Below are positions 35,021 through 62,541 of a stretch of 64,000 bases of DNA, one piece after another. A program made the translations under genes and the position numbers. The DNA lies in assembly GCA_045648885.1 (NCBI GenBank), contig JAZROV010000003.1, positions 3,179 to 67,178 on the forward strand. Reading direction: 5' to 3'. This DNA comes from Candidatus Enterousia sp. (GTDB taxonomy: Bacteria > Pseudomonadota > Alphaproteobacteria > Rs-D84). The notes under the pieces were generated by a model. That model worked only from the letters and a program-made list of their open reading frames with translations. It searched no databases and had not been told where the DNA came from. The number at the start of each line of letters is the position of its first letter. Within the stretch, counting starts at the first letter, position 1.

Positions 35021-35032
35021 TTTTTACCCCTT

Positions 35033-36184: not shown

Positions 36185-36204
36185 TTTCTGCCCCACCTAC
36201 AATT

Positions 36205-37338
36205 TTATGCAAATTTTAACAGCACCAACGCCAATCCCGAAAACAGCACAGACAGAACAAAAAATCTGTCTACGATTTTCGTTTCAGGCCAACCTAATTC
36301 TTCAAAATGATGATGTAATGGCGCACGCAGAAAAATGCGTTTTCCTTCACCTGTCATTTTACGGGTAATTTTGAAATACATTATCTGGGTAAATGAAGAT
36401 AATAAAATCAGAACCATCATGCCTGCGGCAACACCCATTATGATTTCAGATTTTAACAACATCGCTACCGTTCCCATAAATCCGCCCAACGCCAATGACC
36501 CAACATCACCCATGAATATTGATGCAGGTTTTGCGTTAAACCATAAAAATCCCAATACTGCACCGAATGCGGCACCCAACAGAGCATAAAGTGCGCTGGC
36601 TTCTGGTAAAAACATAACCGCATCCATAAAACCTATACGTGTTGCACCATATAACGCAACAGTCAAAACAATCAATACTGGCAAATACAATTTTGCCAAC
36701 ATCCCGTCCAGACCGTCTGTGATATTTGTAGTATTTGCAGAACCACAAATCACAAAATACGCAAACACATAATATAAAAATCCCAATGTCAATGGAATAC
36801 CGAACAAGAAGCCCAATTCTATATTATCCAATGGCAATACTATACTGGACCCCAATACAATAGATAAATTCGGCACATATCCCGGCATAGTTTTATTTAT
36901 AAAATATGCCAACACGATAACACAAACCAATTCCAATCCCAACCGCATCGCGGGTGACAGACCATTTGACGCTTTCTTTGATTGGCTTTTGATTTTCTTG
37001 TAATCGTCTGCAAAACCAATTGCTGCAAACGATAACAGCGCAAACAATGCTATCCATCCTGTTGCATTACGCATCGGCATGAAAAGCAATACCGACACCA
37101 ACATTGCAATAATAATTAAAATACCACCCATTGATGGGGTACCGGCTTTCTTGCGATGTTCGGCAGGGACATTTTCACTGATTGGTTGGCCCTGACCCTG
37201 AATTTTTCGCATAAAACGAATAAAACTGTTTCCGAAAATCAACATTATTGCAAAAGACATACCAAACGCAGCAGCAAATTGAACCCAACCGCTTACGAAA
37301 AATTGATATCCGTGATTTATCATAAAATCTGTCAGCAT
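36205..37338 (-). CDS. mraY: Phospho-N-acetylmuramoyl-pentapeptide transferase
   Basis: HRKKAGTPSMGG, NTTNITDGLDG and the APLHHHFE motifs. Confidence 0.95.
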   Translation of the reverse strand: MLTDFMINHGYQFFVSGWVQFAAAFGMSFAIMLIFGNSFIRFMRKIQGQGQPISENVPAEHRKKAGTPSMGGILIIIAMLVSVLLFMPMRNATGWIALFALLSFAAIGFADDYKKIKSQSKKASNGLSPAMRLGLELVCVIVLAYFINKTMPGYVPNLSIVLGSSIVLPLDNIELGFLFGIPLTLGFLYYVFAYFVICGSANTTNITDGLDGMLAKLYLPVLIVLTVALYGATRIGFMDAVMFLPEASALYALLGAAFGAVLGFLWFNAKPASIFMGDVGSLALGGFMGTVAMLLKSEIIMGVAAGMMVLILLSSFTQIMYFKITRKMTGEGKRIFLRAPLHHHFEELGWPETKIVDRFFVLSVLFSGLALVLLKFA

Positions 37339-41163: not shown

Positions 41164-42456
41164 TTATTTTTTTATGGCTTCGCCCCATTTTTTAAGGTTT
41201 TTCCACATTGTATCTAAGTCTTTTTTAGCAGTCTGATAGTATTTATCAGAGATTTTTATCTTGAATAACATATCTGTCAATTGCGGAATCATCGTCATAA
41301 ACATCGCAATAAATATCCCCATCAAAATCGTGGTTATAATGCTGTTATTCTGCAACAGCAAGCCATCCAGGAATATTTTCGAATCGTTTTGCGCAATCGA
41401 TTGAGCAATAACATTTGCACCCGACCAATCTCCGAATGCTGCATTTAAAAACATTATTGAAAAAGTCAAAAATATAACCGTCAACGCGATTCCTACGACT
41501 GCTTTGATTACATCATCTATCATTTTGCGAATCGTTTGACCACCCTGGGGGAATATTTTGAATTCATCTTCGTCAAACATCCACGCCATCAACATCAAAG
41601 GCAACATTATCAAATCCATAGATAATTTCACAAATATTTCCAAAAAATACAGTGGTATCGGCAACAACGCATAAAAATACAACACCAATATCAATATTCC
41701 ACCCAACAACAATGGTATATTCGGAAATATCGGCACATTGAATAAAATTTTATGTTGATACTCTGCATTAAACGCCATATTCATCATTGTCCAACCGACC
41801 GTCATGCCCAGACCAGTTATTTGATGCACATTTGCAATCTGGCACGCCAATTGATGCCGCAATTTTGGAGAAAACGCACCGTACGCCGCCGCCCCACCAG
41901 ACACAGAAACAGGATCAGCAATCGCCGTAGCAACCATACATTCTGCAAAATTATCATTGTTTGAAACCATATAATCAAACGAAGTCCCCAATGTCAGCGC
42001 AGGTTCAATAAACACGCCCGTTATCAATCGTGGCAGTGGCATCAACAACAACCCCGCCAACACCGCCAATTTCACAACGTATGTGTTGAAATTGCCAATC
42101 AGTTTTGACCCAGATTCCATTTTTCCATTTATCTGATTTGAAAACAAACGCCACGCAACCAATACCGCCAACAGCGTCGCAGACATCGGTATTACTACAA
42201 AACCCAAACCACGATATACCCCCGGCAACAAATTAGACATCGCAATCATAACATCTGAAAATATTTGGCATGTCCAACACGAAGAAAAAAAATCAAACGC
42301 ATCCGCCATATTTACCGGTGCCAAACTGCGCCAAATTGAAACACCCAATATTCCGACACCCGCTGCAATACCACCGATTGCCAACGGCGCCAGCGCCCAT
42401 GCACCCCCCGGTACCAATGCCACCAACACCAACCAAATTTTTTTTAGCGTTTTCAT
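41164..42456 (-). CDS. Polytopic membrane protein, VirB6/TrbL-like paralogue a (divergent from b-e)
   Basis: Signal/TM start MKTLKKIWLVLVALVPGGAWA (ATG 42456). N-terminal CWTCQIFSDV motif, many TM helices, and a central LPLMLMAWMF segment resembling the VirB6 P....F core. Confidence 0.55.
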   Translation of the reverse strand: MKTLKKIWLVLVALVPGGAWALAPLAIGGIAAGVGILGVSIWRSLAPVNMADAFDFFSSCWTCQIFSDVMIAMSNLLPGVYRGLGFVVIPMSATLLAVLVAWRLFSNQINGKMESGSKLIGNFNTYVVKLAVLAGLLLMPLPRLITGVFIEPALTLGTSFDYMVSNNDNFAECMVATAIADPVSVSGGAAAYGAFSPKLRHQLACQIANVHQITGLGMTVGWTMMNMAFNAEYQHKILFNVPIFPNIPLLLGGILILVLYFYALLPIPLYFLEIFVKLSMDLIMLPLMLMAWMFDEDEFKIFPQGGQTIRKMIDDVIKAVVGIALTVIFLTFSIMFLNAAFGDWSGANVIAQSIAQNDSKIFLDGLLLQNNSIITTILMGIFIAMFMTMIPQLTDMLFKIKISDKYYQTAKKDLDTMWKNLKKWGEAIKK

Positions 42457-42525
42457 AATTTTAATTATACCACAAATTATTTTAAATGTGATATAATTCA
42501 ATAGATAAATAATATAAAAGAGAGA

Positions 42526-43836
42526 ATGTTCATTAAAAACACGCGAATTTCACGGTTTTTTAGATATATCCCAAAAATCTTTGGGATTGTGTGTGTTGCT
42601 TTTTTGTTTGGGGCAACACCTGCACGGGCTGATATTCTGGACGCATATAATCTGGCACCGTTTGTTCCATTGGTTTTGGAAAGCATGATGAACATCGCAA
42701 CATCGCTTTATAAATTTTTTGTTGGTAATGGAACAGGCCTGATTTACATTTTGATTTACGTGTTCTTGGGATTTTATATCAGTTTATATCTGGCAAAAAT
42801 GTTTTTACCAAAAGATTGGCTGTCGTTTTTTGGTTTTTCAAATGGTGGCGAAATATGGTCCGGGGCATCGGGTTGGTCAATTGCAGAAAATGTTGCGAAA
42901 CCATGTGTCCGTGTTATTTTTGCGTGTATAATATTGTTGCAAATAAAACCTGTATATGTGACAAAATGGTTGGTAGATCCATTTTTAGAGTTCGGTTCAA
43001 TCTACACAGAACAGATTTTAAAAACAATCAATCGTTCTTCGATATCCGCATCTGATGCACCGGTTTGCCCTGTATCAATTCAAGAATCGGGGTGGATATC
43101 AAAGCGTAGTTGTGATTTTTTGGTTAAACCTGTTTATATAATTTCCAAAGAAAACAATCGCGTTATAAAATATGGTCTGAATTTTTTAAAAACCGGTCTG
43201 GCAGGTTTGATGACTTTGATTCCACATGGCGGAGAAAATATTTTAAACATTATTTCGGGTTTAACTTTGTTGACTGCGTTTATATCTGCGAATTTATTTA
43301 TGGCACTGCTGATTATCCAGGCGATATTTGATTTTTGTTTATCATTGATACTGTATCCGTTTAATGTGTTGATGTGGGTCGGAAAAAAATCAGACAAATG
43401 GTTGGATTTTTTACCTGTGTTCAATCAAATCATTGATGCATTAAAGAAATTGATTATCACTATGATTGCATGCGCGTTTATTTTGTGTATAAATCTGGCG
43501 ATTGTTCGTGCACTGTTTAATTGGACTTCGTCAGTTTTTGTTGTGGCAACAAGTGGCGTCGCATCATCAAATGTGCCGTCAATTACAAATACAGCCATGA
43601 ATTTTGGTCAACATTCTATTTTATGGATATCGTCAATTTTGACATTCTTTTTGATGCAAAATATTTTCAAAATGACACGCGAGAGATTAGATTTATACAC
43701 CAACAGAAAACCACACGACCTGGACCTTTACAACAATGTGTCTGGGGATATAAAAACCGTGTGGGGCAAAGTGAAATCAACACCAAAGACGATAGAAACT
43801 ATCTGGCATGGTGGCAAAAAACTGGCAGGCAAATAA
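42526..43836 (+). CDS. Polytopic membrane protein, VirB6/TrbL-like paralogue b
   Basis: Promoter TGTGATATAAT at 42487..42497. Signal-like N-terminus, multiple TM helices, central LILYPFNVLMWVGKKSDKW. Confidence 0.55.
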   Translation: MFIKNTRISRFFRYIPKIFGIVCVAFLFGATPARADILDAYNLAPFVPLVLESMMNIATSLYKFFVGNGTGLIYILIYVFLGFYISLYLAKMFLPKDWLSFFGFSNGGEIWSGASGWSIAENVAKPCVRVIFACIILLQIKPVYVTKWLVDPFLEFGSIYTEQILKTINRSSISASDAPVCPVSIQESGWISKRSCDFLVKPVYIISKENNRVIKYGLNFLKTGLAGLMTLIPHGGENILNIISGLTLLTAFISANLFMALLIIQAIFDFCLSLILYPFNVLMWVGKKSDKWLDFLPVFNQIIDALKKLIITMIACAFILCINLAIVRALFNWTSSVFVVATSGVASSNVPSITNTAMNFGQHSILWISSILTFFLMQNIFKMTRERLDLYTNRKPHDLDLYNNVSGDIKTVWGKVKSTPKTIETIWHGGKKLAGK

Positions 43837-43840
43837 ACAT

Positions 43841-45028
43841 ATGGAACAAATTGGTAATTTCTTTATAGATACTACTATGAAATGTTGGGCATGTCCCATC
43901 TTTGACAATTTGTTTGTGATTATTTCTGATGCTGCGGGCAAAATGTACAAACAATTGACTGTGTTTGGGGTTATCATATTCTGCATTTTATTTTCTTTCT
44001 TTGTAATAAACGCAGTATGGGAAAATATCAAAAGCAAAGAACCTGATAATTTTTTCAAAAAATCAATAAAGCCTGTTGTAATAAAAGCGTTGATTGCATT
44101 GTCTTTGTTGGGTATGGGGCTTCAAGTGCCGCGGCTTATTTCTAAAATTACATTCGAACCTGTTGCTGCGGTTACATTGGAATTTTCAAAAGTGATGATT
44201 CCGACCGATTATCCGATAACCAAAGATTATCAAAAAATAGAATTAAAAAATGATGGTTTTTTTACACCAAAATTACGTGACACAATTCTTGATTTGATAC
44301 AAACCAGCATCGCAAATTTCCAAGTCTATGTAAAAATTGGCTTAAACATTATGGACAGTGCTTTTTCGCTTAAAAGCCTGATTTATATTGGTTCATTGGT
44401 GAAACATATTATAGTGTTTTTCATAGGTGCACTTTTGACATATAATTTTGTTCGATTGTTTATAAAATATTCATTTTGTTTTATGGATATCATTATTGCG
44501 ATGGCAATGTTCGCGTTCTTTTTCCCATTGTCGATAATATTTTTCATATTCAAAGGTGCAGATAATTTACCCGGATGGATGAAAAGTTTTGGCGGCGATT
44601 TAGGTTCAGGTCAAATCAAATCATTGATAAATGCGATTGTATCTGTGGCGGCTGCGATATTGGGATATACAATTATTATGATGATTATCCGTGGATATTT
44701 AAATTCAAATGGGGTTGATATAAATGCTTTCCATGCGAACATAGAAACTTTGTTTGATTTTGATTTAGAAAATTCGAATGCAATGCAAATAACATTCGCA
44801 GGCGCAATCGTTTTGGTTTATGTTATTCGATATATCGCAGACGAAATTCCAAAAATAACCAATAAAATTTTGGAAACTTTCAATTTATCAATGAACGATT
44901 CTGCATCCAAAGAGATGGGCGAAAATATGTTAAAATTGACAACTGTGGTTGCAAAAGAAGCAAAAGAAATTGCATCTGCGATTATAAATCCAGAGGCAGC
45001 GTCTAAGAAAGAAGAAAAGAAAAAATGA
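43841..45028 (+). CDS. Polytopic membrane protein, VirB6/TrbL-like paralogue c
   Basis: ATG 43841 lies a few nt after the stop of b. N-terminal MKCWACPIFDNLF motif. Central FFFPLSIIFFIFKGADNLPGW. Confidence 0.55.
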   Translation: MEQIGNFFIDTTMKCWACPIFDNLFVIISDAAGKMYKQLTVFGVIIFCILFSFFVINAVWENIKSKEPDNFFKKSIKPVVIKALIALSLLGMGLQVPRLISKITFEPVAAVTLEFSKVMIPTDYPITKDYQKIELKNDGFFTPKLRDTILDLIQTSIANFQVYVKIGLNIMDSAFSLKSLIYIGSLVKHIIVFFIGALLTYNFVRLFIKYSFCFMDIIIAMAMFAFFFPLSIIFFIFKGADNLPGWMKSFGGDLGSGQIKSLINAIVSVAAAILGYTIIMMIIRGYLNSNGVDINAFHANIETLFDFDLENSNAMQITFAGAIVLVYVIRYIADEIPKITNKILETFNLSMNDSASKEMGENMLKLTTVVAKEAKEIASAIINPEAASKKEEKKK

Positions 45029-46455
45029 TAAAAAAGTGGTTGATAGAAAAAGGTTTTAAAATCGTTATCGGCGCAATTTTGTTGGGCGTTGGTATATGGT
45101 ATTTATCTTCGTCTATTGGTGGTGCTTCTTTGTCATACACATCGATGGATACATTTATGCATCAAATTGATAATGGCACCGATGCATATGGTGTCCCGGG
45201 CTGTTTCTTGTGCAAATATATTGGCGATTTGTTTGCGACATTGGGCCGCGCAACAGAAATGTTCTGGAATGGCATAGTTCATAATTTATGGATATTGATG
45301 GCCATTGGTTTTGGTATTTTCTTAATATTTCATACTTTGAAATTTTTGCGCGAACAGGCCACATCCAAAGATATCAAAGATTTAACCGACGCGGAACCCA
45401 AATTAGATTTCAAAAAATGGTTTGATCAAGTCTGGAAAACAGGCGTTCGTGTTTTAATGGTCGGTGCGCTAATTGGTGCGTTGAATTGGTCTGGGACCGG
45501 GGCATTGCGAACAATGACAAATATAACTGTGACGCCGGTTATGTATATGGGGTCTGCGCTTTCTATGGGCGCGACCGGCGTAATCAGCGATGCACAATGC
45601 GAAATAACAACTACTGCGCAAAACCCTGATGACATTTTAAATCCAGTATTAAAACCGTTTATGTGTGTTATTGGTAATTTGAATACGGTTATGTTGGCAG
45701 GCGCAGGTGGTGGTTTTGCACTGATGAATTACGCATGGATGGGCATGGGCGGTGGTGTCTTTACCTGGGTTGCAGGGTTGGCATTGGTTATTATGTTTTT
45801 AATTATCGGTTTTGATTTATTGTTCCAGGTTTTAACTGTGATTTTCAAATTGATATTCATAATAATATTTATGCCGATTTTATTAGCTGCTGTCGCATTT
45901 GAACAGGTCTGGGCATTGGCCAAAGGTTTAATGAATTCTGCAATAAATATGCTGGTAAATTCTGCGGTCAGTATATTGAGAATCAGTTTGAAAATTTGTA
46001 TTGTTTATGCTGTTGTTTATTTTTCTGCATCACAATATGGTTTCACAACTATTTTACCACCATTGTTGGGAAATGTCAGGAACGAAACATTCACTGAAAA
46101 ATCACAAATGGTATTCGATGCATTTTCAACCTGTGAAAAGACAGCATTGGTTGATGGCGAAATAAACAAAGAGAAATTTAAAATATGTTTTGAACAACAA
46201 CGCAGTTCCATTGTCGCACAATATCCAGATGCTTTTGATTTCATGTCAGACGGTCTGGGATTTTTATTATTTATGATTGGTGTGGCGTTCCTTTATTTCT
46301 GGATAATATCACCAAAGATAGATGGATTGTTGGGCAAAGATGGCAAAGAAACATTTGATTATGGTCAATGGGTAAAAGATTTTGGCAAAGCGTCTGTGAA
46401 TGCGCCGCATACTGTGTACACCAAAGTCAAAGAAATTATGGACAAAGGAAAATAA
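45025..46455 (+). CDS. Polytopic membrane protein, VirB6/TrbL-like paralogue d
   Basis: ATGA start/stop overlap with c. GCFLCKYIGDLF motif. Central IIIFMPILLAAVAFEQVWALAKG. Confidence 0.55.
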   Translation: MIKKWLIEKGFKIVIGAILLGVGIWYLSSSIGGASLSYTSMDTFMHQIDNGTDAYGVPGCFLCKYIGDLFATLGRATEMFWNGIVHNLWILMAIGFGIFLIFHTLKFLREQATSKDIKDLTDAEPKLDFKKWFDQVWKTGVRVLMVGALIGALNWSGTGALRTMTNITVTPVMYMGSALSMGATGVISDAQCEITTTAQNPDDILNPVLKPFMCVIGNLNTVMLAGAGGGFALMNYAWMGMGGGVFTWVAGLALVIMFLIIGFDLLFQVLTVIFKLIFIIIFMPILLAAVAFEQVWALAKGLMNSAINMLVNSAVSILRISLKICIVYAVVYFSASQYGFTTILPPLLGNVRNETFTEKSQMVFDAFSTCEKTALVDGEINKEKFKICFEQQRSSIVAQYPDAFDFMSDGLGFLLFMIGVAFLYFWIISPKIDGLLGKDGKETFDYGQWVKDFGKASVNAPHTVYTKVKEIMDKGK

Positions 46456-46458
46456 AAA

Positions 46459-47739
46459 ATGCAATTAAAAACATTTTTTAAACGTTTGTTTATCGCCATT
46501 GTATGTGTGGTTGGTGTATATGGTGCATCATATGCGGCTGGAAACATGCCTTTGGGCGAAGTTGGCGAATATGGCGCATGGATAAATGAAGACAATATGT
46601 CAGAATACAAACAAAATATTTCTGATGATTTTACAAAATTCCAACAAAATTTTGAAACGGATGTCAAAGCGCCAAACTTTGTCCCAATCGAAGTAAAATT
46701 AGGTTTAGCATTTATGAAATCTTTGTATGCGATTGATGCAGTGCTGCAAATCTCTTTGGTTCGATTCACAATTATATTTTTGTTTATTATGTATGCTTTC
46801 TGGATAGCATTAGAAGCATATAAAATGATTCGTGATTCTAATGATTATAAATCGGCTTTTTATGACATATTTAAGAAAGGAATAACTATTGCAGTATGGG
46901 TTATGATTTTAAATTATGGGCCTGCAAAAATATTTACCATGATTATCGGACCAATTATGTCAATCGGAACATATCTATCGAATTTCATTTTGGATACAAT
47001 CGCATCAAATTATGATGTAAATATTCCAGACACATGCGCGACTATCCACCAATATGTTGACGCTAATACAAATGGAAAATTGTTAATAGACGCCGATGCT
47101 GCTGCAAATATTATGTGTTTGCCCGGACGTATATCAACCTATTTTTATTACGCAACATCAACTGGTTTTAAATGGATGATTTACGGATTCACCCAGGGTA
47201 TCACTGCGATAGTTATTGGTGCGGTCTGTGTGTTTGTTTTTGTAAAATGTGTTTTCAAATATGCGTTTATGACTTTGGGTGTGGTTGCAGATTTATTTTT
47301 AACATTATTGATGTTGCCGTTCACTGCGATTGCAGAATCTATGCCATCCACCAAAGAATCAAATTATATCGGTCAAATATTCAGTGGCTTATTAAAAATA
47401 TTCAGCACAAAAAAATTATCAGATGTAATTTCTGTTTTCGTAAATGCGACAATATATTTCGTCAGTTTATCTATTATCATCGCAATTTGTGCATTGTTGT
47501 TGTCTAATGCAATCGGTTTGAACGCGGATAATTCTTATTCTGTGGCATCTGGAATGACATCTTTGTTAACAGGGTGTTTGATATTATATCTGGCGAACAA
47601 ATCTGATGAATTAGCCAAAAAAATCGGCGGTAAAATCGATAATTCATTTGGAAAAACATTACAAAGCGATGCAAAAAATTTGGTCAAACAAACAAAAGAT
47701 TTGGGTGGTAAATTGGTTAAAGCATGGGTAAAAAAATAA
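46459..47739 (+). CDS. Polytopic membrane protein, VirB6/TrbL-like paralogue e
   Basis: Starts 3 nt after the stop of d. Signal peptide. NFVPIEVKLGLAFMKSLY resembles b (APFVPLVLESMMNIATSLY). Central LLMLPFTAIAES. Confidence 0.55.
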   Translation: MQLKTFFKRLFIAIVCVVGVYGASYAAGNMPLGEVGEYGAWINEDNMSEYKQNISDDFTKFQQNFETDVKAPNFVPIEVKLGLAFMKSLYAIDAVLQISLVRFTIIFLFIMYAFWIALEAYKMIRDSNDYKSAFYDIFKKGITIAVWVMILNYGPAKIFTMIIGPIMSIGTYLSNFILDTIASNYDVNIPDTCATIHQYVDANTNGKLLIDADAAANIMCLPGRISTYFYYATSTGFKWMIYGFTQGITAIVIGAVCVFVFVKCVFKYAFMTLGVVADLFLTLLMLPFTAIAESMPSTKESNYIGQIFSGLLKIFSTKKLSDVISVFVNATIYFVSLSIIIAICALLLSNAIGLNADNSYSVASGMTSLLTGCLILYLANKSDELAKKIGGKIDNSFGKTLQSDAKNLVKQTKDLGGKLVKAWVKK

Positions 47740-50586: not shown

Positions 50587-52872
50587 TTACGACCCGGAAC
50601 AGGTATTATTTTCAATTTTCTGAACCGTCACACTGTGTTGTGGTTCCAATACACCACCGGTTGCAGTCCCAGTTTCACACGATACGCATGCGCCCAGATT
50701 ATTACGATATTCATTTATTGAACACGATGCCAAACACGCACCACCCCAAACAGTATAACCATCATCACATTTACAACGTGCATTTGCATATCCACCGACG
50801 GTTCTGTTTGCCGATACAGTTTGCGCAGACGCAACAAATGTCGAATTAGTCGGACACAGCAACGATTGATAGAACAAATCAGAAACAGCCTGAATTAAAT
50901 ACGCCTTTTGCAAAGTATCTATAGTTTTCAATTCCGCCGCTGATGGTTGATTTCCAGATGTATTATCAGATGCGATTCTTTCCATTTCGGCTGCAACATT
51001 TGCATCATACGCAAACACAGCGTATCCACACGTCAATGCAACATTGTAACATGCACCCGTCATGACGCTGTAAATGCTGTTTGCGTTCGCAGTTGTGCTT
51101 AACGAAGAAATCTGGGTCATCTGTTGATTATAGCAATCAGAAATATCAGACATACATGTTGATGCATAATCAGATATTACACGCGATTGGGCCGCTTTGA
51201 TATTCACCATCGCACGTTGAATGTAATTCACAACAATATCGTTATACGGTTTGTACGACGCGGTTTTACCGGTTGCAGAATACGTATAATCTTGGCATTT
51301 ATCCAAAACAGCACGACACAAACCACCATCTTTGGCAGATTGACCAGTTCCAATTTTATTCATCAAATAATTCACTATGCACGCACCATCGTGATTGCTG
51401 CACGTTGTATCCGCACTGGCCGCTTTGATAAAATCAGCAGTTATATTCGCATTGTTATAATTTTCTGTGATACCTGCAATGGCAGCGATATTGCGACCCA
51501 AAACCACATTACCATTTTCATCAATATAATTTTTAGTTGGATCCAAACATTTAACATAATCTTCACCACAAACCATATCATCCAACATGCAATTTTCGAG
51601 TGCTCCTACACACCCACGCGCATCATATTGATTTTTATTTTGCAGAACGGTTAAACGACCTTTTTGCAACATCAAATTCGCACTGCGCACATTAGACAAT
51701 AATGTCTGATTTAATTTTTCCAATCCCTGTTCATATGCAGCGCAATCTTTTACGATAGCCAAATCATAATTACCAGTAATTTGAGATTCGGTTGCACCCG
51801 CATCTTTGCATTGATTCAAAACAACTTTGCAACGTTTTGTTGCCTCTTTATACAAATCTTTGCCACGTTTTGAAGATATATCATTCGAAGAAGATGTAAA
51901 TAAATCCAGCCCAAACAAATCAGATGCGTCGGACGAAAAATCAAATTCCATATCCAACAAAGAATTTCCATTCGCAGAATATGAATATGCAGATGACGAT
52001 GTCGGATCTTTTATCATTTCTGCAATATCGTCCAACATAGAGCGTGTTTGCGTATTATCTTTGGTTTTAGATAATTCTAATTCCGCCTCAGTCGCGTTCA
52101 TAATCGCACGAATTTCATCAGCCGACAACCCCAAATATCTGATATTTTGCGCAACTTCGTTTAATTCAACATTCGCGTCTTCGACCGCCGCCTGGACCCG
52201 CGCATATTTCGCCAGATTTTCAGAACACGAACAACGCTTTTGATTTGCATCAACGACCGCACAGAATTGATCCATGCATTCATTGTATTGCTCTTGACAT
52301 GTATTATTCAAATCAGCCGTTTTTTCCAAAACATCTTTGGCCGCAGAAATAGATTCCGCAGTCGGCGTCACACTTTTCCGCGTATTTCCCAACAACGATG
52401 CACGCCCCTGGATATTGCGAATTTCTTGGTTTATGTTAGACCCAGTCTGGGTATCAGTGCCAGTAATTTTTGCACGTCCGCCCACTTCCGCAGTTGTGGC
52501 ACGCAAAACAACGCCTGCGCGACGAACCGACGGATCTGAATTGATACTGGCCGCATCAGTGCGCGCATTACGACCAACCGTATTCACTGCCGTATCCAAA
52601 GAATTGCGCGTCACAGTATTTCTTTGCGCACCACGCGAAACGACATTTACATCTGGTTTTTGATTATTTGTTCGGGCAATTGCACGTGCAACATTACGCG
52701 AAATTGCCGCTTTGTCATCTGATTTTTTTCCTGTTTCACCGTCATAAACATTTGAATTTGTTCCGACACTTGTGCGCCGCGCGCCACGATTTGTGGACGT
52801 GTCAGACACCGCCGCAAAACCATTCGCAGCAAACAAAACAGTCATGAAAAAACATAAAACTATATTTTTCAT
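50587..52872 (-). CDS. Cys-rich secreted protein, paralogue 1 (761 aa)
   Basis: Signal peptide MKNIVLCFFMTVLFAANGFA. Arg/Ser/Thr/Asn-rich low-complexity N-terminal region. Motif CQEQYNECMDQFCAVVDANQKRCSC. Cys pairs throughout, with an EGF/furin-like Cys-rich C-terminus. Confidence 0.8.
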   Translation of the reverse strand: MKNIVLCFFMTVLFAANGFAAVSDTSTNRGARRTSVGTNSNVYDGETGKKSDDKAAISRNVARAIARTNNQKPDVNVVSRGAQRNTVTRNSLDTAVNTVGRNARTDAASINSDPSVRRAGVVLRATTAEVGGRAKITGTDTQTGSNINQEIRNIQGRASLLGNTRKSVTPTAESISAAKDVLEKTADLNNTCQEQYNECMDQFCAVVDANQKRCSCSENLAKYARVQAAVEDANVELNEVAQNIRYLGLSADEIRAIMNATEAELELSKTKDNTQTRSMLDDIAEMIKDPTSSSAYSYSANGNSLLDMEFDFSSDASDLFGLDLFTSSSNDISSKRGKDLYKEATKRCKVVLNQCKDAGATESQITGNYDLAIVKDCAAYEQGLEKLNQTLLSNVRSANLMLQKGRLTVLQNKNQYDARGCVGALENCMLDDMVCGEDYVKCLDPTKNYIDENGNVVLGRNIAAIAGITENYNNANITADFIKAASADTTCSNHDGACIVNYLMNKIGTGQSAKDGGLCRAVLDKCQDYTYSATGKTASYKPYNDIVVNYIQRAMVNIKAAQSRVISDYASTCMSDISDCYNQQMTQISSLSTTANANSIYSVMTGACYNVALTCGYAVFAYDANVAAEMERIASDNTSGNQPSAAELKTIDTLQKAYLIQAVSDLFYQSLLCPTNSTFVASAQTVSANRTVGGYANARCKCDDGYTVWGGACLASCSINEYRNNLGACVSCETGTATGGVLEPQHSVTVQKIENNTCSGS

Positions 52873-52922
52873 CTCTCGCGTTTATTATATCACAAAGAAG
52901 GCGCGAAAAAAAGATGTTTATA

Positions 52923-52953
52923 TTATAAAAACGCCTGTGGGAATCCACAGGCG
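52923..52953 (-). terminator. Intrinsic terminator after rpmA
   Basis: Minus strand reads CGCCTGTGG-ATTC-CCACAGGCG followed by TTTTTATAA. Confidence 0.7.
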
Positions 52954-52976
52954 CAAATAAATAAATGTCTTATTTA

Positions 52977-53240
52977 TTATTTTGATTCTTCAGGAATGAC
53001 CGAAACAGTTTTACGATCACCATTTCCGCGTTTAAAAGAAACAATTCCTGCAATTTTGGCGAACAAAGTATGATCTTTGCCCATACCGACATTCAAACCT
53101 GGATGAACAGATGTTCCGCGTTGACGGATAATGATATTTCCAGGAATTACGCGGCTGCCGCCACTTTTCTTTACACCTAATCTGCGTCCGGCCGAATCGC
53201 GTCCGTTTGTTGATGCAGAACCAGCTTTCTTATGTGCCAT
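52977..53240 (-). CDS. rpmA: 50S ribosomal protein L27
   Basis: [25 protein letters not shown]... Confidence 0.95.
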
Positions 53241-53271
53241 GATTAAACTCCTTACGTTCTAGATACGGGCG

Positions 53272-53571
53272 TTAGGCCTTGATTGATTTAATTTTCAACA
53301 CAGTAATAAACTGACGATGACCGGCAGTTCTGCGATAATTTTGGCGACGTTTTTTCTTGAACACCAAAACTTTGTCACTGCGTTTTTGTTCGATTACATC
53401 GGCAACAATTTTCGCACCGTCAATATATGGTGTGCCAACTTTGTCACCAACCATTAAAACCTTGTCAAATTCGACAGACCCTGTGGCGTTCAGTTTTTCA
53501 ACCTTGATAATATCGCCCTCAGAGACACGATATTGTTTGCCACCGGTTTGAAATATAGCAAATGTAGACAT
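53272..53571 (-). CDS. rplU: 50S ribosomal protein L21
   Basis: MSTFAIFQTGGKQYRVSEGDIIKVEKL... Confidence 0.95.
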   Translation of the reverse strand: MSTFAIFQTGGKQYRVSEGDIIKVEKLNATGSVEFDKVLMVGDKVGTPYIDGAKIVADVIEQKRSDKVLVFKKKRRQNYRRTAGHRQFITVLKIKSIKA

Positions 53572-53771
53572 ATTCGTTTTTCCTACTTTGGTTTGTTATT
53601 TTTGTTATTCAAATTTCGCTTTTGCACAAAATTTTATGCAAATTATACACACAAAACACCAAAAGTCAACCATTTTGTAGAAAAATTTATGCAAATTACA
53701 CAATTCCCTTTCCGCCACATTTATTAAACACAAAAAACCGCCTAAACGGCGGCGAATCTGACATCAACAAA

Positions 53772-56024
53772 TTATTTATCCCGATAGGAACGATTTCTGT
53801 CACGTTCAACCGCGGTTTTGGCAGTAGAAATATTCAAAGTCAACCCATTAACACAATCGCGAATTTGAGATTCTTTGACAGAACCTTTGTCACAAGTTTC
53901 TTGTTTTCTAAAATCTGGACTAGTGCATTTGCTAGAAAGCGTTACAGCATTACCCGCATTTCCGTCTTTGTCTGGAATACTTCCAAATATGTCTTCGGCA
54001 GCACCGACCGTCGAAACCAATTGCTGGCAAGCTTTTTTCTTCTGACTTTTTATTGAACCTTGGACAACGCTGAGATTCGAACGCAAACAATTCAACATAG
54101 TGTCTGTATCGCCCGTATAACAATTTGCGGCACCAGACAGATAAATTCCTTCTTCCCGGTCGGCACGTGATGTTGACCAAGATGAACCAGTTGAATCATC
54201 GTCTTTTTTGGCACCAGATGCTTCCAAAGTCGCTTGGAACACTGCTTTTTCCAGATGTGTTTTCAACCGACGCAATGTTGCCGCCAGATATTCATATTGT
54301 TTATACATTTGTTGCGCAACGACAGTCGTTTTCAAACCAACTATTTCTGCGATTTTGTCACGATTTGTTGTTGAATTTGTTGTTTCGCCGATATTATACG
54401 CATGTGTATCGCACATTGCATAAATCGGATTCACGAACGGACAACTTGCGTCTTCGGTCGTGCTGCCCAGTTCATCAACACAAAGTTTTTGACCACCTTT
54501 CGTTGAAATAGATTTGCTTAACCGCGCAGTTTCCAATACAGTCTGGGCTTCAGCATTATAACAAGAATCATACATATGTTTATTGGCATCAGACGGTTTA
54601 ACATTCGGTTCTGTTTGTGTCAACCAAGTACTTAAAAATTCAATATCAACCAAACCTGCGCCATTTTTACGTTTTGCACGACGCCCCAGAAAACCACTAC
54701 GTTCTACCATTTTTGAAGCGCACCCAACGACAACAGAATTTCTGGATCTGTCAACTTCACCACCTTCTTCGACCCAACTGCCATAGATTTCATCATCATT
54801 GGTCAGTTTTTTATTTACAGTGCACATTGTACAATATGATTTTATGCAATTTCTGAAACCTGTTTCATCATTTTGATGGGCAGATTTACAGGCCTGATAA
54901 TTTGAACCATATGCGTCTTTACCATCCACAGTTGGTCCAACAACCGAACGGTCGCAAACCATTGGCACACCGTCATCATAGACTAATTCGCCATTAACCT
55001 TGTACGGACAAAGGAAATTCGCCCATTCTTTGCAGGAATCACTAAGCATCATATAAATCGGTGTAATGTCAACCCCGACCAATGACGCATCGTCCAGCGC
55101 ATCATAAATTTTATCCGCTACATTATCGTATGGGTCGATAAAATCAAGCGCCAATTCGCGGAATTTTTTCACACGTTTTGGGCCACTGCAATTATTTCCA
55201 TGTGAATCACAGCCCGCATATTCAAACGCCGCAGACATAGATTTTTTCACTTCGGCCAACGACACATCGGCATCTTCGATTTCGGTCATTATTTTACCCG
55301 TCGCCTGTTGCCGCAATAAAATTTCTGCAGATATACCATCATCAATTGCATTCGTTTGGGTCGCGGTTAAATCCATTGTTGATACAGGTATTGTATTTAC
55401 AGTGTTCACTGTATTCGCCGCACTGGTCAAATTTTCAATTGCAGCCGCATTTTGTTCGCGCTGTTCTGCCAATGCGTCCTGTAATTGACGTTGAGTCTGG
55501 GCATTTTGTGCAGCCATCTGTTGTTGCATTTGCGCCATTTGTTGCGTCATATTTGATTGCATTTGTGCGATTTGCGCAGCCATTTGTTCAGACTGTGCGT
55601 TTTGTGCCGCCATATTGGCCATAGCCTGTTGTTCGTTCGCCCGCGCCGTAGAATTTGCAACCAATTGAGCCGCCATATACGACACCAATTCATTGCCATA
55701 TTGTTTGCAAGACGCATTTGATTCCACACAGCCCGCCACAATCGCAGTCGCCACATTCGCGTCAACACAACCACCATTCGCGCATTTTGGCGATGCACAG
55801 CGCATAACAATTGCATTACAATTTCCAAAATCCGCCCGCGCATTAGGTTGTGCCAAATCTGAACGACCATTGACCAAAGTGTTCCATTGATTGTTATAAG
55901 TGTTGCTGGGGTTATATGCAGTCAGATTATGTCCGGCATTTGTTGCAACGACAGCATGCGCCCCGAAATTAAGCAAAGGCGCAGAACACAAACACACTGT
56001 CAAAACACGCGATAATTTTTTCAT
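53772..56024 (-). CDS. Cys-rich secreted protein, paralogue 2 (about 750 aa) with a Gln/Ala/Met-rich coiled coil
   Basis: Signal peptide MKKLSRVLTVCLCSAPLLNFGAHA from ATG 56024. The context GAGAGATGAAAAA resembles the paralogue 1 start. Coiled-coil tract AAQNAQSEQMAAQIAQMQSNMTQQMAQMQQQMAAQNAQ. Many Cys pairs. Confidence 0.75.
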   Translation of the reverse strand: MKKLSRVLTVCLCSAPLLNFGAHAVVATNAGHNLTAYNPSNTYNNQWNTLVNGRSDLAQPNARADFGNCNAIVMRCASPKCANGGCVDANVATAIVAGCVESNASCKQYGNELVSYMAAQLVANSTARANEQQAMANMAAQNAQSEQMAAQIAQMQSNMTQQMAQMQQQMAAQNAQTQRQLQDALAEQREQNAAAIENLTSAANTVNTVNTIPVSTMDLTATQTNAIDDGISAEILLRQQATGKIMTEIEDADVSLAEVKKSMSAAFEYAGCDSHGNNCSGPKRVKKFRELALDFIDPYDNVADKIYDALDDASLVGVDITPIYMMLSDSCKEWANFLCPYKVNGELVYDDGVPMVCDRSVVGPTVDGKDAYGSNYQACKSAHQNDETGFRNCIKSYCTMCTVNKKLTNDDEIYGSWVEEGGEVDRSRNSVVVGCASKMVERSGFLGRRAKRKNGAGLVDIEFLSTWLTQTEPNVKPSDANKHMYDSCYNAEAQTVLETARLSKSISTKGGQKLCVDELGSTTEDASCPFVNPIYAMCDTHAYNIGETTNSTTNRDKIAEIVGLKTTVVAQQMYKQYEYLAATLRRLKTHLEKAVFQATLEASGAKKDDDSTGSSWSTSRADREEGIYLSGAANCYTGDTDTMLNCLRSNLSVVQGSIKSQKKKACQQLVSTVGAAEDIFGSIPDKDGNAGNAVTLSSKCTSPDFRKQETCDKGSVKESQIRDCVNGLTLNISTAKTAVERDRNRSYRDK

Positions 56025-56131
56025 CTCTCTTAAAGACAATTTTATCATAAAAAACATTTGGTGTAAAGCAGAACATAGGTTTTATTCACAAAAAAACACC
56101 GCCCAGACGGGCGGCGTTTTGATTCAGATTT

Positions 56132-58312
56132 TTAATCTTCGGTTTTCACGGTCTTTTTCCATCCGCGCAAACATGTCTGATTTGATGTATCACAATAACC
56201 TTCTGATTGTAATGCAGATTGCAAACATCTTTCACGTACCGCCGCAGAATTCAAATTGGTTGTTCCAAATGTCAACGGTTGCGAGATTGCATTAACCTCT
56301 AATTGCGACGCACCTGTGCCGTACAAGATTTCACTTATCGTCACAATATTACGGCATGTGTTTGTTTTATAATCATCTGTGTAATCGCATCTGGTCGAAT
56401 CTTCTTTATCAACGACAGCAACCAACGGCGATTGCAACGGTGAACAAATCATCGTTTCATAGCAATGTGGAACCTGGGAAACCTGGCTGCAATATGCTTT
56501 GATACGTGCAGTTGTCCATTTGTCTTCGTCTTCATAATCTTCATAACAATCCCAGATTTCAGATATACACTGGTTGAAATTATCAATTGCAGTGGTCGCG
56601 TCAGCAAATACAGCATCGTCTTCTTCTTGTTTGAATTCCAGACGTTTTTGTTGTAATGCCTGTTCCGCAGCAATTTTTTGATAATTGATGTTCTGGGCAG
56701 TTTGTTTCAACGCCGCGCCATATGTATCACATGCAGAATTTGCGTCCAACAAATATTTTTGCATAATGCTGCGACGCGCATCCGCAACCGGACCACGAAT
56801 CGTCACATACGGATCGTTCGATGTCGATGTAGTCGTTCTGGTCCCCGTGGTTGTTGTGGTAGTTGTTGAATAACCAAAGCAACTGGCCGCGGACGCAACC
56901 GTCGCGCTGGTTGAGCCACGTTCATTCAAAACAACATCACCCGTTGAAGAATCAACAGAAATATAACTGTTGTAATTAAACGGACAATTTGATGTCGCAG
57001 ATGTTGCGCATTTTGAATGAGTTTTACCATCCGAATCTGTCAGTGTTCCCGGATTTCCGCAACTTTCATAAATTCCGTTAAAGCAAGAATCTAAGACACG
57101 ACCACAAACATTGTTATGGGCATATTCAAACAATTTATATCCCCATTTATTTGCCAAAGAATCCAGCGCAGCCGAATCTTCATCCACAGAATCTGTAACC
57201 CCAGACAACGCATTCACAACACCCGACACAGTTGTATATTGTGCAATCAAATTATTAGAATCATCAGATGTGTATTGTTTTGCCAAATCTTTTGCATCTG
57301 CCCAGGCTTTTAATTGCGCCAAAATATCAGATGACGAACCATCAATCGACGAAACATCAAATCCGAAATTATTGTTGCTTGATGTGCAATAAGACGGTTG
57401 AGAACAACTGGACACTTTGCCACCGTTGCTGCCATAAATATTATGACTTGAACACCATTCAATTGCTTCATCCGAACTGGCGCCATATTGCGCGATTGTT
57501 TCTTTCCATGATACGCAATTCATAACTTTTTCAGCATCGGTCAGCGAAAACGCATAGGATAAATCGTCGCCTTTGCCTTTGGTGGCAATCAAAAGTGACA
57601 ATTGACCCGACAATTTTATCAATTCTTCGTTTGCCGCTTCCAATGCATCTTCGGCCGCCAAGAAATTAGTTGCACGACCCGCACATGAACAGCGACCCTT
57701 GGTATCACTGCGCGCGGTGCAGATTTCGTCCATACAGGTATAATACGAAGACAAACAATTCGAATACGCATCGGCAGAAATCAATCCAGTTGAAGAATCA
57801 ATAATGTCTGAATATCCACCCGAATATAATTTACTGGTTAAATACGCATATGTCGTCGTCCCAGCACGTGTTCCGGCTATTGGTGTATTTGCAACACTTA
57901 AACGAGCCGGTGTCCCGGTTGTACGCGCACGAACGGCACGATTATCAGAACTGCGCGAAGATGCGGTTTGCGCACGTGATGTCACATTACGCGATGCATT
58001 TGTTGTCCGTGACGCAGTATTTGCGCGCGACGCCACAGAACGCGATGCAGTTCCCCGCGAAACCGTTGTTGTTGGACGCCCCCCGGTTGTCCGCGAAACC
58101 GTAGAACGCGACACAGTCCGATTAGATGTAGTCGTGTTTGAACGCGGGCTTTGCCGTCCAGAACGAACAACATTTTGATTATCTGGAACAATCGGATCTG
58201 CGAACACAGACCGCATGGATATAAATGTGGAACAAACAAAAAATGCCGTCGCCAAAAGGAACATAGTCCCCAATGCATTTTTACAAGAATCCATATTCAT
58301 ACGAATTTTCAT
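56132..58312 (-). CDS. Cys-rich secreted protein, paralogue 3 (about 726 aa)
   Basis: ATG 58312 with RBS AGGAGA. Signal peptide within MKIRMNMDSCKNALGTMFLLATAFFVCSTFISMRSVFA. Repeats of (S/T)R type (TVSRSTVSRTTGGRPTTTVSRGTASRSVASR). Motif CLSSYYTCMDEICTARSDTKGRCSC. Confidence 0.8.
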   Translation of the reverse strand: MKIRMNMDSCKNALGTMFLLATAFFVCSTFISMRSVFADPIVPDNQNVVRSGRQSPRSNTTTSNRTVSRSTVSRTTGGRPTTTVSRGTASRSVASRANTASRTTNASRNVTSRAQTASSRSSDNRAVRARTTGTPARLSVANTPIAGTRAGTTTYAYLTSKLYSGGYSDIIDSSTGLISADAYSNCLSSYYTCMDEICTARSDTKGRCSCAGRATNFLAAEDALEAANEELIKLSGQLSLLIATKGKGDDLSYAFSLTDAEKVMNCVSWKETIAQYGASSDEAIEWCSSHNIYGSNGGKVSSCSQPSYCTSSNNNFGFDVSSIDGSSSDILAQLKAWADAKDLAKQYTSDDSNNLIAQYTTVSGVVNALSGVTDSVDEDSAALDSLANKWGYKLFEYAHNNVCGRVLDSCFNGIYESCGNPGTLTDSDGKTHSKCATSATSNCPFNYNSYISVDSSTGDVVLNERGSTSATVASAASCFGYSTTTTTTTGTRTTTSTSNDPYVTIRGPVADARRSIMQKYLLDANSACDTYGAALKQTAQNINYQKIAAEQALQQKRLEFKQEEDDAVFADATTAIDNFNQCISEIWDCYEDYEDEDKWTTARIKAYCSQVSQVPHCYETMICSPLQSPLVAVVDKEDSTRCDYTDDYKTNTCRNIVTISEILYGTGASQLEVNAISQPLTFGTTNLNSAAVRERCLQSALQSEGYCDTSNQTCLRGWKKTVKTED

Positions 58313-58533
58313 GAAAATCTCCTGCCTATTGTTGCACACAAACAACGCCAGATTTCTGACATGATTTGCGAACAATTCCTTCACTTAAAGAAAATTATAA
58401 CATTTTTAGACGAATGTGTAAATAACAAAAATCGTATTTTATATATAAAAACAACTTTATTTTATTAGACATAAAAACAAAAAAATTTGTAGTATTATTT
58501 TAAAGAAACATACTTTTATGAACAAAGGTGGAT

Positions 58534-59516: not shown

Positions 59517-59918
59517 TTAACAACCGCGATTACATGTACGTCTTACGCGAGTATATGTACCCGATGGAACATATCTGATAACCGGTTTGTATTGTTGAAC
59601 AGTTTCACGAACAAAATATTCACGACGAACAACCGCTTCAACATCACGTGGTTGATATACGCGCGCTTCATATGTATCAACATATGCTGGTGCAACATTA
59701 TAAACCTGGGTTTGAGTTGTTGTTTGGGTTGTTTGTGTTTCGTCTGCCATTTCGCATTCAACAACAGTAATAACTGTGCGATTGTCGGCTGCCGCTTCGT
59801 CCAGCACCGCACGCATGTGCGATTCATCACAATTTGAAACAGACATTTTGTAATAATCGGCCATCGCAGATACAGATGCCAAAGCAGCAACAAAAGAAAC
59901 CAGAACAATTTTTTTCAT
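59517..59918 (-). CDS. Small secreted protein (133 aa)
   Basis: Signal peptide MKKIVLVSFVAALASVSAMA from ATG 59918. Thr/Gln-rich linker. C-terminal CNRGC. Confidence 0.55.
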   Translation of the reverse strand: MKKIVLVSFVAALASVSAMADYYKMSVSNCDESHMRAVLDEAAADNRTVITVVECEMADETQTTQTTTQTQVYNVAPAYVDTYEARVYQPRDVEAVVRREYFVRETVQQYKPVIRYVPSGTYTRVRRTCNRGC

Positions 59919-60059
59919 GTTTTTAACTCTTTTTGTTTTGTTCTCTCTGCCTCTTAACGGCAATTTTATAATATATTTTTTTGTCTGCAAGAAAAAAACT
60001 TAATGGTTGACAAAATAAATAAACGTATTATATTTATATAAAAGAAAAAAAAGGAAACC

Positions 60060-62034: not shown

Positions 62035-62541
62035 TTATTCTTCGTCGACCAAAGCCATATTCAAACCATATTTACCGGCCGGACCAATAATACTGTATTT
62101 CTTTTTATTTACAAACCCCATCAAACCGGCATTACCATGGAACAAATACACATGCGACGCGTCGTTTTCCAGCGCTTTTTGATCAATATCAAAACCGTTT
62201 GTATAAACCAGATTGTGAACCGTATGGTCTTTTTCTTTATCACGTTGTTTCACCAGCCACGCATTCAACGGACAACGATAAACCAAATTTTCTTGTTCTA
62301 TCTTGGCATTTTGTTCCGCGATATATTTTTCACATTGTTCAGGCGTTTTCGCGCGTTTCAAACAAATCTGTAAATCTTCGGGGAACCGCGCAAAATCTGT
62401 ATTACAACTTTCAACCGTATTACAATCTTTTTCGTTCATAGTCCCCTTTTGATGACCAATAACTTCACAATCAGAAACATCAATCGCTGCAAAACCCAAC
62501 GCTGGCGCAAAACAGAACAAAACAAAAAACAATTTACGCAT
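62035..62541 (-). CDS. Secreted hypothetical protein (168 aa)
   Basis: Signal peptide MRKLFFVLFCFAPALGFA. Promoter TGTGATATAAT on the minus strand at 62567..62577. RBS AAAGGA. Confidence 0.6.
   Translation of the reverse strand: MRKLFFVLFCFAPALGFAAIDVSDCEVIGHQKGTMNEKDCNTVESCNTDFARFPEDLQICLKRAKTPEQCEKYIAEQNAKIEQENLVYRCPLNAWLVKQRDKEKDHTVHNLVYTNGFDIDQKALENDASHVYLFHGNAGLMGFVNKKKYSIIGPAGKYGLNMALVDEE

Follow-up and report, generated by a model that had tools for sequence, protein, structure and literature searches.

Three conserved orphan Cys-rich proteins of Candidatus Enterousia, two of which share a new Cys-helix domain, as candidate envelope proteins

The stretch of DNA analysed here (the window; 64,000 nucleotides of contig JAZROV010000003.1 from Candidatus Enterousia sp.) carries, near the ribosomal protein genes rplU and rpmA, three minus-strand open reading frames (ORFs) for large Cys-rich proteins, which we refer to as P1, P2 and P3. 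All three are conserved core genes of Candidatus Enterousia. Judging from their sequences and from predicted models, we propose, with a probability of roughly 0.4, that they encode lineage-specific, Sec-exported, disulfide-stapled and mainly helical structural proteins of the envelope or surface that would carry variable adhesive tips. What is established comprises the genes and their conservation, the homology of one domain between P1 and P3, the pattern of Cys residues, the variability of the tips and the presence of promoter-like sites and terminators that are separate for the genes. An earlier sequence-only reading of this DNA had pointed out the three ORFs, and all are present in the ORF list at the positions it gave. 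Its start codons are also the best supported ones: Met1 of P1 (52872) and the ATG of P2 at 56024 (MKKLSR...) are the consensus starts of their families, that of P2 beginning MKxLSR, and the ATG of P3 at 58312 is the start of the database protein P0241 and lies behind a conserved promoter. The longest ORF of P2 extends to 56057, and a longer GTG-initiated reading of P3 to 58384 is unlikely as it overlaps the promoter.

Candidatus Enterousia (Rs-D84) is common across human, ruminant, horse and chicken guts, and to our knowledge no representative has ever been cultured. It has been placed in the order Rs-D84, with genomes below ~1 Mbp, and described as a strict fermenter without respiratory chains, lacking respiration, the tricarboxylic acid cycle, part of glycolysis and most biosynthesis, for which dependence on a partner organism has been proposed (PMC12306168). 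So small a genome, with hardly any biosynthesis, means that it has to live at the expense of other cells. Each of the three proteins belongs to a large family of full-length and almost entirely unnamed relatives, with at least 1001 homologous 90%-identity clusters for P1 (56-93% identity), 871 for P2 (38-91%) and at least 1206 for P3 (64-100%), which is the best conserved among them. When one genome per GTDB species was scanned, relatives of P3 turned up in 264 of these species-representative genomes, and 80 of the records were retrieved (loci L001-L080). These are labelled Candidatus Enterousia, uncultured Alphaproteobacteria or proteobacterium, or 'Rickettsiales', and the sources named include rumen, sheep, goat, yak, horse, water buffalo and roe deer; two P3-bearing contigs belong to a Hadza (human gut) assembly. 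One locus (L075, CAVGNU010000001.1) is labelled 'Bacteroides fragilis' and has the full Enterousia-type order P3-rplU-rpmA-P1-dnaQ-uvrD; this public bin is probably mislabelled or contaminated.

The three proteins had been taken for paralogues, and this view stands for P1 and P3 with respect to an N-terminal module and fails for P2. BLASTP aligns P1 with P3 at E 2e-4 across the basic region and the Cys motif, and hhalign (probability 97.6%, E 2.8e-12) over 97 columns that correspond to the C-x6-C-x4-C-x9-C-x-C motif and the next helices, so that the motif noticed earlier in both proteins reflects real homology. By these alignments P1 and P3 share one homologous segment of ~100 residues (CxxxYxxCMDxxC...RCSC plus helices). 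Both also have an Arg-rich disordered N-terminus. Beyond the N-terminal module sub-region hhalign detected no similarity, and the C-terminal 450 residues of the two proteins have nothing in common by this test. P2 is unrelated to P1 and P3 by every sequence test, namely BLASTP and full-length or sub-region hhalign with alternative alignments included. The hidden Markov model (HMM) of the shared domain, run with filters off, matched 0 of 120 P2-family sequences (P0121-P0240) at E<=10, and comparison of P2 with a broadened 156-sequence domain profile gave an hhalign E of 0.82. On sequence evidence P2 therefore appears to be an independent family whose layout is only analogous, with a signal peptide, a Cys cluster starting with C-x6-C-x4-C, then a stretch that is helical or of low complexity, and finally a body with Cys residues.

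The Cys-helix domain (CxxxYxxCMDxxC...RCSC) appears to define a new unnamed family with P1 and P3 as members and P2 outside it. Its hallmarks are five conserved Cys residues and invariant Y, M-D, R, A-N..L and T.AE positions, and within the window its HMM matches only P1 (1e-43) and P3 (1e-31). The domain profile matches 453 50%-identity clusters. Among 159 domain sequences (the best 150 matches and 9 cluster members), 95 are P1-type, 23 P3-type and 41 partial or divergent, and the named ones are all proteins from metagenome-assembled genomes of gut Alphaproteobacteria. Flg_new repeats are found in two long members of the domain family (P0385 and P0377) and in a few P3 orthologues.

All three proteins begin with a Sec-type N-terminus (K/R n-region, hydrophobic core and AxA-like site), as judged by reading the sequence directly, which agrees with the signal peptides noted earlier. 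An AlphaFold2 model of P1, built from a 120-sequence alignment, has a mean predicted local distance difference test (pLDDT) score of 69. Residues 16-167 are largely disordered in it (pLDDT below 50 at 16-104, 120-135 and 141-167), residues 172-411 form long helices at moderate confidence, and residues 420-750 (pLDDT mostly 80-94, with a dip to 69-78 near 581-600) form a helical domain followed by a beta-rich Cys-repeat end. In the family alignment the Arg positions of the N-terminal region are conserved and residues 100-160 are nearly invariant. The Cys-helix domain falls in the predicted helices 172-211 and 217-246. The core, which is 66-91% conserved per 20-residue block, contains C-x6-C pairs at residues 348/355, 421/428/435/442, 491/498, 519/526, 573/580 and 608/615. 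Six of the seven 20-residue blocks over residues 621-761 are only 11-46% conserved, and many insertion hot spots are found there. The predicted strands (residues 677-760) make up a Cys-repeat beta region of ~85 residues at the C-terminus. Orthologues of P1 carry C-terminal insertions or extensions of up to 171 aa, and in the long ones the C-terminus is lengthened by tandem repeats of the C-x3-C-P-x-G-x-Y type.

The N-terminus of P3 is conserved to a degree that is unusual for a cleavable signal peptide. Among 120 orthologues 16 positions between residues 15 and 40 are invariant, including F24, F25, C27, S28 and T29; the block of residues 21-40 is 94% conserved, and a helix is predicted for residues 7-34. 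This segment may be either a cleavable signal or a membrane anchor. The basic region that follows aligns with that of P1 by BLASTP. Further Cys pairs of P3 lie at or after a long predicted helix of 89 residues (C582/C589 ... C608/C617). The AlphaFold2 model of P3 is weak (pLDDT 57) but helical, also over most of the C-terminus, which is variable in sequence and length while the core is conserved. In P2, all six Cys residues of the N-terminal cluster are invariant; the first three keep the C-x6-C-x4-C spacing seen in P1 and P3, without statistical similarity. The heptad signal of the Q/A/M-rich segment of P2 is not significant in a crude scan, and its TFIIA and JetC matches are weak and spurious. 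The coiled coils suggested earlier find support only in the form of long AlphaFold2 helices, seen in P1 and P3, and the signal of the crude heptad scan is marginal.

Cys makes up 3.7-3.9% of P1-P3, in line with the earlier description of the proteins as Cys-rich, and the mature proteins have even numbers of Cys residues (28 in P1, 26 in P2 and 26 in P3). These are kept at 0.99, 0.95 and 0.93 in the family alignments of P1, P2 and P3, as compared to 0.60, 0.44 and 0.66 for other residues. Cys is the best-kept residue type in P1, where 26 of 28 mature Cys residues are retained at >=90%, and in P2, and the third best in P3. Pairs spaced i,i+7 are found nine times in P1 against 1.0 expected (P<5e-5), four times in P3 against 0.94 (P=0.013) and three times in P2 against 0.88 (P=0.055). 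The C-x6-C motifs of P1 stand in adjacent pairs (421/428 with 435/442, 491/498 with 519/526, and 573/580 with 608/615), each flanking a predicted helix-turn-helix. CxxC is almost absent from the three proteins, which also have almost no CxxH or His-rich motifs. The spacing, evenness and retention of the Cys residues and the near-absence of CxxC would fit structural disulfides that staple helices, and not metal clusters. A 'symmetry' test for twin C-x6-C hairpins was discarded as evidence since any two C-x6-C motifs are symmetric by construction. Neither 'twin CX6C' nor 'CX6C motif' occurs in the literature searched.

The basic low-complexity regions described earlier for P1 and P3 are indeed present and are rich in S, T and N. 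Residues 23-170 of P1 have a net charge of +12 with 18 Arg, and the rest of the protein -23; the corresponding values for P3 are +15 with 19 Arg over residues 39-172, and -29 for the rest. Median identity across orthologous loci is 57% for P1, 56% for P3 and 43% for P2, compared with 66% for UvrD, 81% for DnaQ, 81% for L21 and 70% for the PagL-like protein, while four of five other lineage-specific neighbours (o157, o155, o426 and o476) lie at 43-59%. P1 and P3 thus evolve only a little faster than UvrD and slower than most other lineage-specific neighbours. Their cores are far more conserved than usual S-layer proteins or antigenically variable adhesins, which makes the S-layer-like role suggested earlier doubtful.

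Known families do not account for the three proteins, in line with the sequence-only reading, which could place the motif in none. Profile searches against Pfam, NCBIfam, PHROGs and PADLOC gave no significant match for P1, P2 or P3, and PDB sequence-profile searches with all three family alignments gave nothing significant either. Matches to TFIIA, JetC and DUF2959 were below cut-offs and reflect low-complexity or helical noise. Foldseek searches with the P1 model (PDB and BFVD) and with the P3 model (PDB) returned helical-bundle noise only, with no E <= 0.001 and TM scores <= 0.24; the best BFVD match of the P1 model had an E of 0.007 and TM scores of 0.06-0.08. No autotransporter beta-barrel translocator, YadA anchor, SLH or other S-layer domain of Pfam is found in P1-P3. 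A phage or plasmid origin was ruled out, as tblastn found no match of P1 in phage records or of P3 in plasmid records and no PHROG was significant. Some orthologues are already annotated as PF27023.

For these proteins we infer export, disulfide formation, assembly, surface exposure and adhesion. The invariant, even-numbered Cys residues, many of which lie seven apart on predicted helices, would pair as disulfides after export, and these bonds would hold helix-turn-helix units and long helices together as rigid bodies of mostly alpha-helical structure. The module common to P1 and P3, a positively charged disordered Arg-rich tether followed by the ~100-residue Cys-helix domain, might dock both proteins onto one target, which could be an anionic polymer of the envelope or a shared partner. 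Their conserved cores could then assemble into a fixed structure from which the variable C-terminal ends would point outward and touch partner or host cells. P2 would follow the same building principle (Cys cluster, helical low-complexity stretch, Cys body) independently. A role in the envelope or at the surface is plausible, as it fits the Sec-type N-termini, the variable C-terminal tips (Cys or Flg_new repeats in orthologues) and the near-consensus promoters. In its favour, Enterousia retains three genes of ~2.2 kb despite a genome below 1 Mbp; the slow divergence of P1 and P3, the Cys pattern and the mostly helical models also support it, as do the shared N-terminal module and the other Cys-rich exported orphans of the window.

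Several points weigh against this proposal. No homologue of P1-P3 with a known function was found, and neither was an outer-membrane anchor, lipobox, beta-barrel or secretion-system signal in the three proteins; because of the latter the proteins may lie in the periplasm and not at the surface. The largest weakness of the disulfide model is the lack of a respiratory chain, and the classical DsbA/DsbB-quinone pathway may therefore be missing; the 64-kb window holds no Dsb gene, ~90% of the genome lying outside it. The low confidence of the P3 model (pLDDT 57), the very high conservation of the cores, unusual for adhesins, and the marginal result of the crude scan for canonical coiled-coil heptads count on the same side.

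The missing outer-membrane targeting features suit proteins that stay in the periplasm as scaffolds or tethers, and this is the main rival, although we regard it as rather unlikely. The Arg-rich tail would then sit on peptidoglycan or on the inner leaflet of the outer membrane, with the helical bodies bridging or ordering the periplasmic space; the whole would replace envelope-integrity systems lost in genome reduction, and P3 may stay anchored in the inner membrane via its N-terminal helix. The near-invariant hydrophobic segment of ~21 residues in P3, of a kind more usual in anchors than in signal peptides, and the housekeeping-like conservation of the P1 and P3 cores are in keeping with it. 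So is the envelope itself: the family scans identify a class A penicillin-binding protein, a TolC-like and a PagL-like protein in the window, and the sequences at 33974-37338, outside those scans, we take to resemble MurG, FtsW and MraY from the look of their N-termini, which together indicate a normal diderm envelope with peptidoglycan synthesis. The variable C-terminal arrays of Cys repeats or Flg_new in orthologues, typical of exposed and diversifying regions, speak for the surface instead.

A bolder version of our preferred reading, to be taken as speculative and improbable, would join P1 and P3, together with P2 in genomes that have it, as subunits of an extracellular apparatus of a type not seen before, by which the Rs-D84 lineage would be defined. 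This would be a disulfide-knotted helical fibre or coat on Arg-rich tethers with variable Cys-repeat tips that grip a partner cell. Its cross-linking might depend on redox state, being reduced under the anoxic conditions of the gut and locked when the cells meet oxygen during transmission, like that of chlamydial elementary bodies. A narrower form of the envelope and surface proposal, in which P1, P2 and P3 build one hetero-oligomeric fibre and each chain gives a Cys cluster to disulfide rings that join the chains where a helical bundle begins, like fibrinogen or laminin, seems to us distinctly improbable. In its favour, the three chains are almost equally long (750-761, 750 and 726 aa), their parts come in one common order and the folded portions each begin with C-x6-C-x4-C; Cys residues spaced i,i+7 lie on one helical face, and the genes are neighbours on the same contigs in many genomes. 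However, 49 of the 80 loci have no P2 within 10 kb of P3, P2 evolves faster, the genes form three separate transcription units, and the heptad signal is weak.

Secretion of the proteins as effectors or toxins that act on host or partner cells is very unlikely in our view. It would suit the partner-dependent lifestyle (PMC12306168), and helical regions of LidA, colicin Ia and Tc toxin are among the best non-significant Foldseek matches, but these structural matches all have E >= 0.007 and, whichever normalisation is used, TM scores <= 0.24, and amount to helical-bundle noise. The presence and sequence of effectors usually vary, whereas P1-P3 are near-universal, syntenic and slowly evolving, and no catalytic domain was found by Pfam or NCBIfam. 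Least likely of all is that the Cys residues bind metals or act as a redox or thiol buffer: the anoxic habitat, the lack of a respiratory chain to drive DsbB and the conservation of Cys (ranking first among residue types in P1 and P2 and near the top in P3) would agree with such a function, but metal-site motifs (CxxC, CxxH, His-rich) are nearly lacking, the i,i+7 helix spacing is not a usual geometry for metal sites, and Pfam and NCBIfam detect no known metal-binding domain in these large, acidic, helical proteins.

The positions of genes, protein parts and signals are collected in Table 1. Terminators follow P3, P2 and rpmA, and each unit has its own promoter-like site, therefore P1, P2, P3 and rplU-rpmA are separate transcription units. 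An operon with rplU-rpmA was ruled out by these promoters and terminators between the genes and by variable synteny, and the link to the ribosomal protein genes is positional only. In 78 of 79 orthologous loci a sequence that agrees with the P3 promoter at 10 or more of the 12 positions lies equally far from the gene; such a score is reached by 16 of 300 background windows. A TATAAT box lies 11-13 nt upstream of P1 in four of six orthologous loci compared. In P1 and P2 the -10-like box stands just 11-14 nt 5' of the ATG, which is directly preceded by GAGAG; this suggests very short leaders, unlike that of P3. The hairpin in the P3 leader shows compensatory changes in three pairs in the alignment of orthologous loci and the leader has a fold z-score of -2.0, with no Rfam match. 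In more distant species UUUU follows the hairpin directly, an arrangement that is attenuator- or terminator-like.

The common gene order is pagL (minus strand), P3, [P2], rplU, rpmA, P1, dnaQ (minus strand), uvrD. P2 lies within 10 kb of P3 in 31 of the 80 loci, sometimes upstream of P3, and P1 does not adjoin rpmA in some genomes. The suggestion of a family duplicated around a ribosomal protein operon was hence overstated, the order P3-[P2]-rplU-rpmA-P1 occurring in many species and not in all. G+C is 41-44% across the three genes (measured at 52001-58000), compared with 32-40% in most of the window, probably because of the Ala/Arg/Gly-rich composition of the proteins.

Further Cys-rich exported orphans are present in the window, where classical envelope proteins are almost Cys-free, and this suggests that Cys-rich exported proteins are a recurring class in Enterousia. 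The fourth large one is the product of 14740-17841 (minus strand), 1033 aa with a signal peptide, 28 Cys in the first ~590 residues and hydrophobic stretches later; it falls in no family of Pfam or NCBIfam and lacks the Cys-helix domain. Two small exported orphans are encoded on the minus strand at 62035-62541 (168 aa, 7 Cys) and 59517-59990 (157 aa, 4 Cys, ending CNRGC), the latter syntenic beside pagL and P3 in many Enterousia loci. Five consecutive orphan ORFs at 41164-47739 (406-476 aa) carry N-termini that resemble signal peptides or membrane segments and match no family of Pfam or NCBIfam, the last two being conserved beside uvrD in most orthologous loci; they may be another lineage-specific envelope gene block. 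A 366-aa membrane protein at 17820-18920 (minus strand) has a sub-threshold match to the mycoplasma MG_279/MG_280 two-transmembrane family (E 8e-7, 29 bits, cut-off 125). A 404-aa protein with a C-terminal phage-lysozyme domain (20838-22052, plus strand; E 7e-29) and a 576-aa PcfJ-like protein (8263-9993, minus strand) may be mobile-element remnants or have envelope-remodelling functions.

Table 1. Positions in the window of the three genes, their parts and the signals around them
Feature	Position	Strand	Description and basis
P1 gene	50587..52872	-	761 aa, predicted exported, 29 Cys (28 mature), family A1; ORF list
P1 signal peptide, ~residues 1-22	52807..52872	-	MKNIVLCFFMTVLFAANGFAAV; read from sequence
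P1 Arg-rich region, predicted disordered, residues 23-170	52363..52806	-	pLDDT and charge
P1 shared Cys-helix domain, residues 180-290	52003..52335	-	C192-x6-C199-x4-C204-x9-C214-x-C216 and helices
P1 conserved core, residues 291-620	51013..52002	-	low-confidence linker 293-332, then helices with C-x6-C pairs
P1 variable C-terminal region, residues 621-761	50590..51012	-	beta-rich Cys repeats (CKCDDGYTVWGGAC...)
P1 extended -10-like box	52884..52892	-	TGaTATAAT, 11 nt upstream of P1 ATG
Intrinsic terminator after rpmA	52931..52954	-	10-bp stem and T-run; separates rplU-rpmA from P1
rpmA	52977..53240	-	ORF list; L27 Pfam match on orthologous genes
rplU	53272..53571	-	ORF list; L21p Pfam match on orthologous genes
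rplU-rpmA promoter-like site	53669-53642	-	conserved in orthologous loci
Terminator-like hairpin and T-run after P2	53737..53753	-	sequence
P2 gene	53772..56024	-	750 aa from conserved start, predicted exported, 26 mature Cys, family A2
P2 N-terminal Cys cluster	55707..55820	-	C80-x6-C87-x4-C92-x4-C97-x12-C110-x6-C117, numbered from 56057
P2 Q/A/M-rich low-complexity segment, residues ~125-225	55383..55685	-	sequence
P2 promoter-like site	56039..56067	-	TTTACA-17-TAAAAT, with TG; just upstream of ATG 56024
Intrinsic terminator after P3	56099..56114	-	GCCGCCCGTCTGGGCGG then TTTTTTT on minus strand
P3 gene	56132..58312	-	726 aa, predicted exported or signal-anchored, 26 mature Cys, family A3
P3 N-terminal hydrophobic segment, residues 1-38	58199..58312	-	h-region ~21 residues, then VFA/DP (slash, putative cleavage site)
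P3 Arg/Ser/Thr-rich disordered region, residues 39-172	57797..58198	-	repeated xSR motifs; pLDDT <50 over 27-170
P3 shared Cys-helix domain, residues 174-285	57458..57793	-	C186-x6-C193-x4-C198-x9-C208-x-C210
P3 89-residue predicted helix, residues 506-594	56531..56797	-	AlphaFold2 pLDDT 70-88
P3 5' leader, ~80 nt	58313..58393	-	conserved AAGTGAAGG box, GC hairpin 58362-58345, strong AGGAGA Shine-Dalgarno
P3 promoter	58394..58422	-	TTTACA-17-TGnTATAAT, ~80 nt upstream of P3 ATG

The genes of P1-P3 occupy ~0.75% of a genome below 1 Mbp and are among its best-conserved lineage-specific genes. Because they are exported by prediction, conserved and without characterised relatives or a solved fold, they are prime candidates for the envelope or attachment machinery of a dependent lifestyle. 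As orphans of a widespread, uncultured, reduced-genome lineage they are worthwhile targets, and they could serve as specific markers or antigens to detect, sort or image Enterousia. The repeated C-x6-C may represent a new disulfide-stapled helical architecture.

Each of P1-P3 stands for an orphan family, and no known structure matches the P1 model; there is no sign yet of a new kind of system. With fibrous adhesins such as trimeric autotransporters, M-like proteins and those of the Flg_new or internalin type they have in common a signal peptide, an extended helical portion and a distal end that varies, and the Flg_new repeats of some orthologues are a further point shared with the last type. 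Unlike these adhesins, P1-P3 have no YadA-type anchor, LPXTG motif, beta-barrel or passenger domain, and their core is far more conserved. Fibrinogen, laminin and COMP resemble them in a Cys cluster directly before long helices, in several chains of similar size and in variable or globular distal domains; these are eukaryotic matrix proteins, however, and P1-P3, whose oligomerisation is hypothetical, have a weak heptad signal and no homology to them.

Other parallels bear on the predicted stapling of helices. The Helicobacter Hcp proteins, built of Sel1-like repeats (SLR), are likewise secreted and alpha-helical, with short-range Cys pairs that staple neighbouring helices, as predicted for P1-P3. 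Unlike Hcp, P1-P3 show no Sel1 or SLR match in Pfam (none at E<=1), no 36-residue repeat periodicity and no Foldseek match to SLR proteins. In the twin-CX9C and twin-CX3C (CHCH) hairpins, whose compartment, the mitochondrial intermembrane space, is equivalent to the periplasm, Cys pairs of fixed spacing lie in helices that flank a turn, and the three adjacent pairs of C-x6-C motifs on predicted helix-turn-helix units in P1 are reminiscent of such an arrangement, their Cys pairing being a prediction. The spacing is 6 and not 9 or 3, though, and the units lie inside proteins of 750 residues and not of 10 kDa; P1-P3 have no CHCH match in Pfam and no CX9C pair pattern (offset-10 Cys pairs: 1, 2 and 1).

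The chlamydial proteins OmcB and OmcA are Sec-exported, rich in conserved Cys and come from obligately partner-dependent bacteria with small genomes. P1-P3 are similar in their predicted Sec export, their conserved Cys residues and their partner-dependent, small-genome host, and disulfide cross-linking of the envelope is proposed for both. OmcB consists of beta-sandwich DUF11 repeats, whereas P1-P3 are predicted to be mainly alpha-helical, have no DUF11 repeats by Pfam or NCBIfam and show no sequence or fold similarity to it; Enterousia also differs in that it retains peptidoglycan synthesis genes. OmcB carries a basic N-terminal region ahead of its Cys-rich body, and offers a disulfide-cross-linked envelope as a working model.

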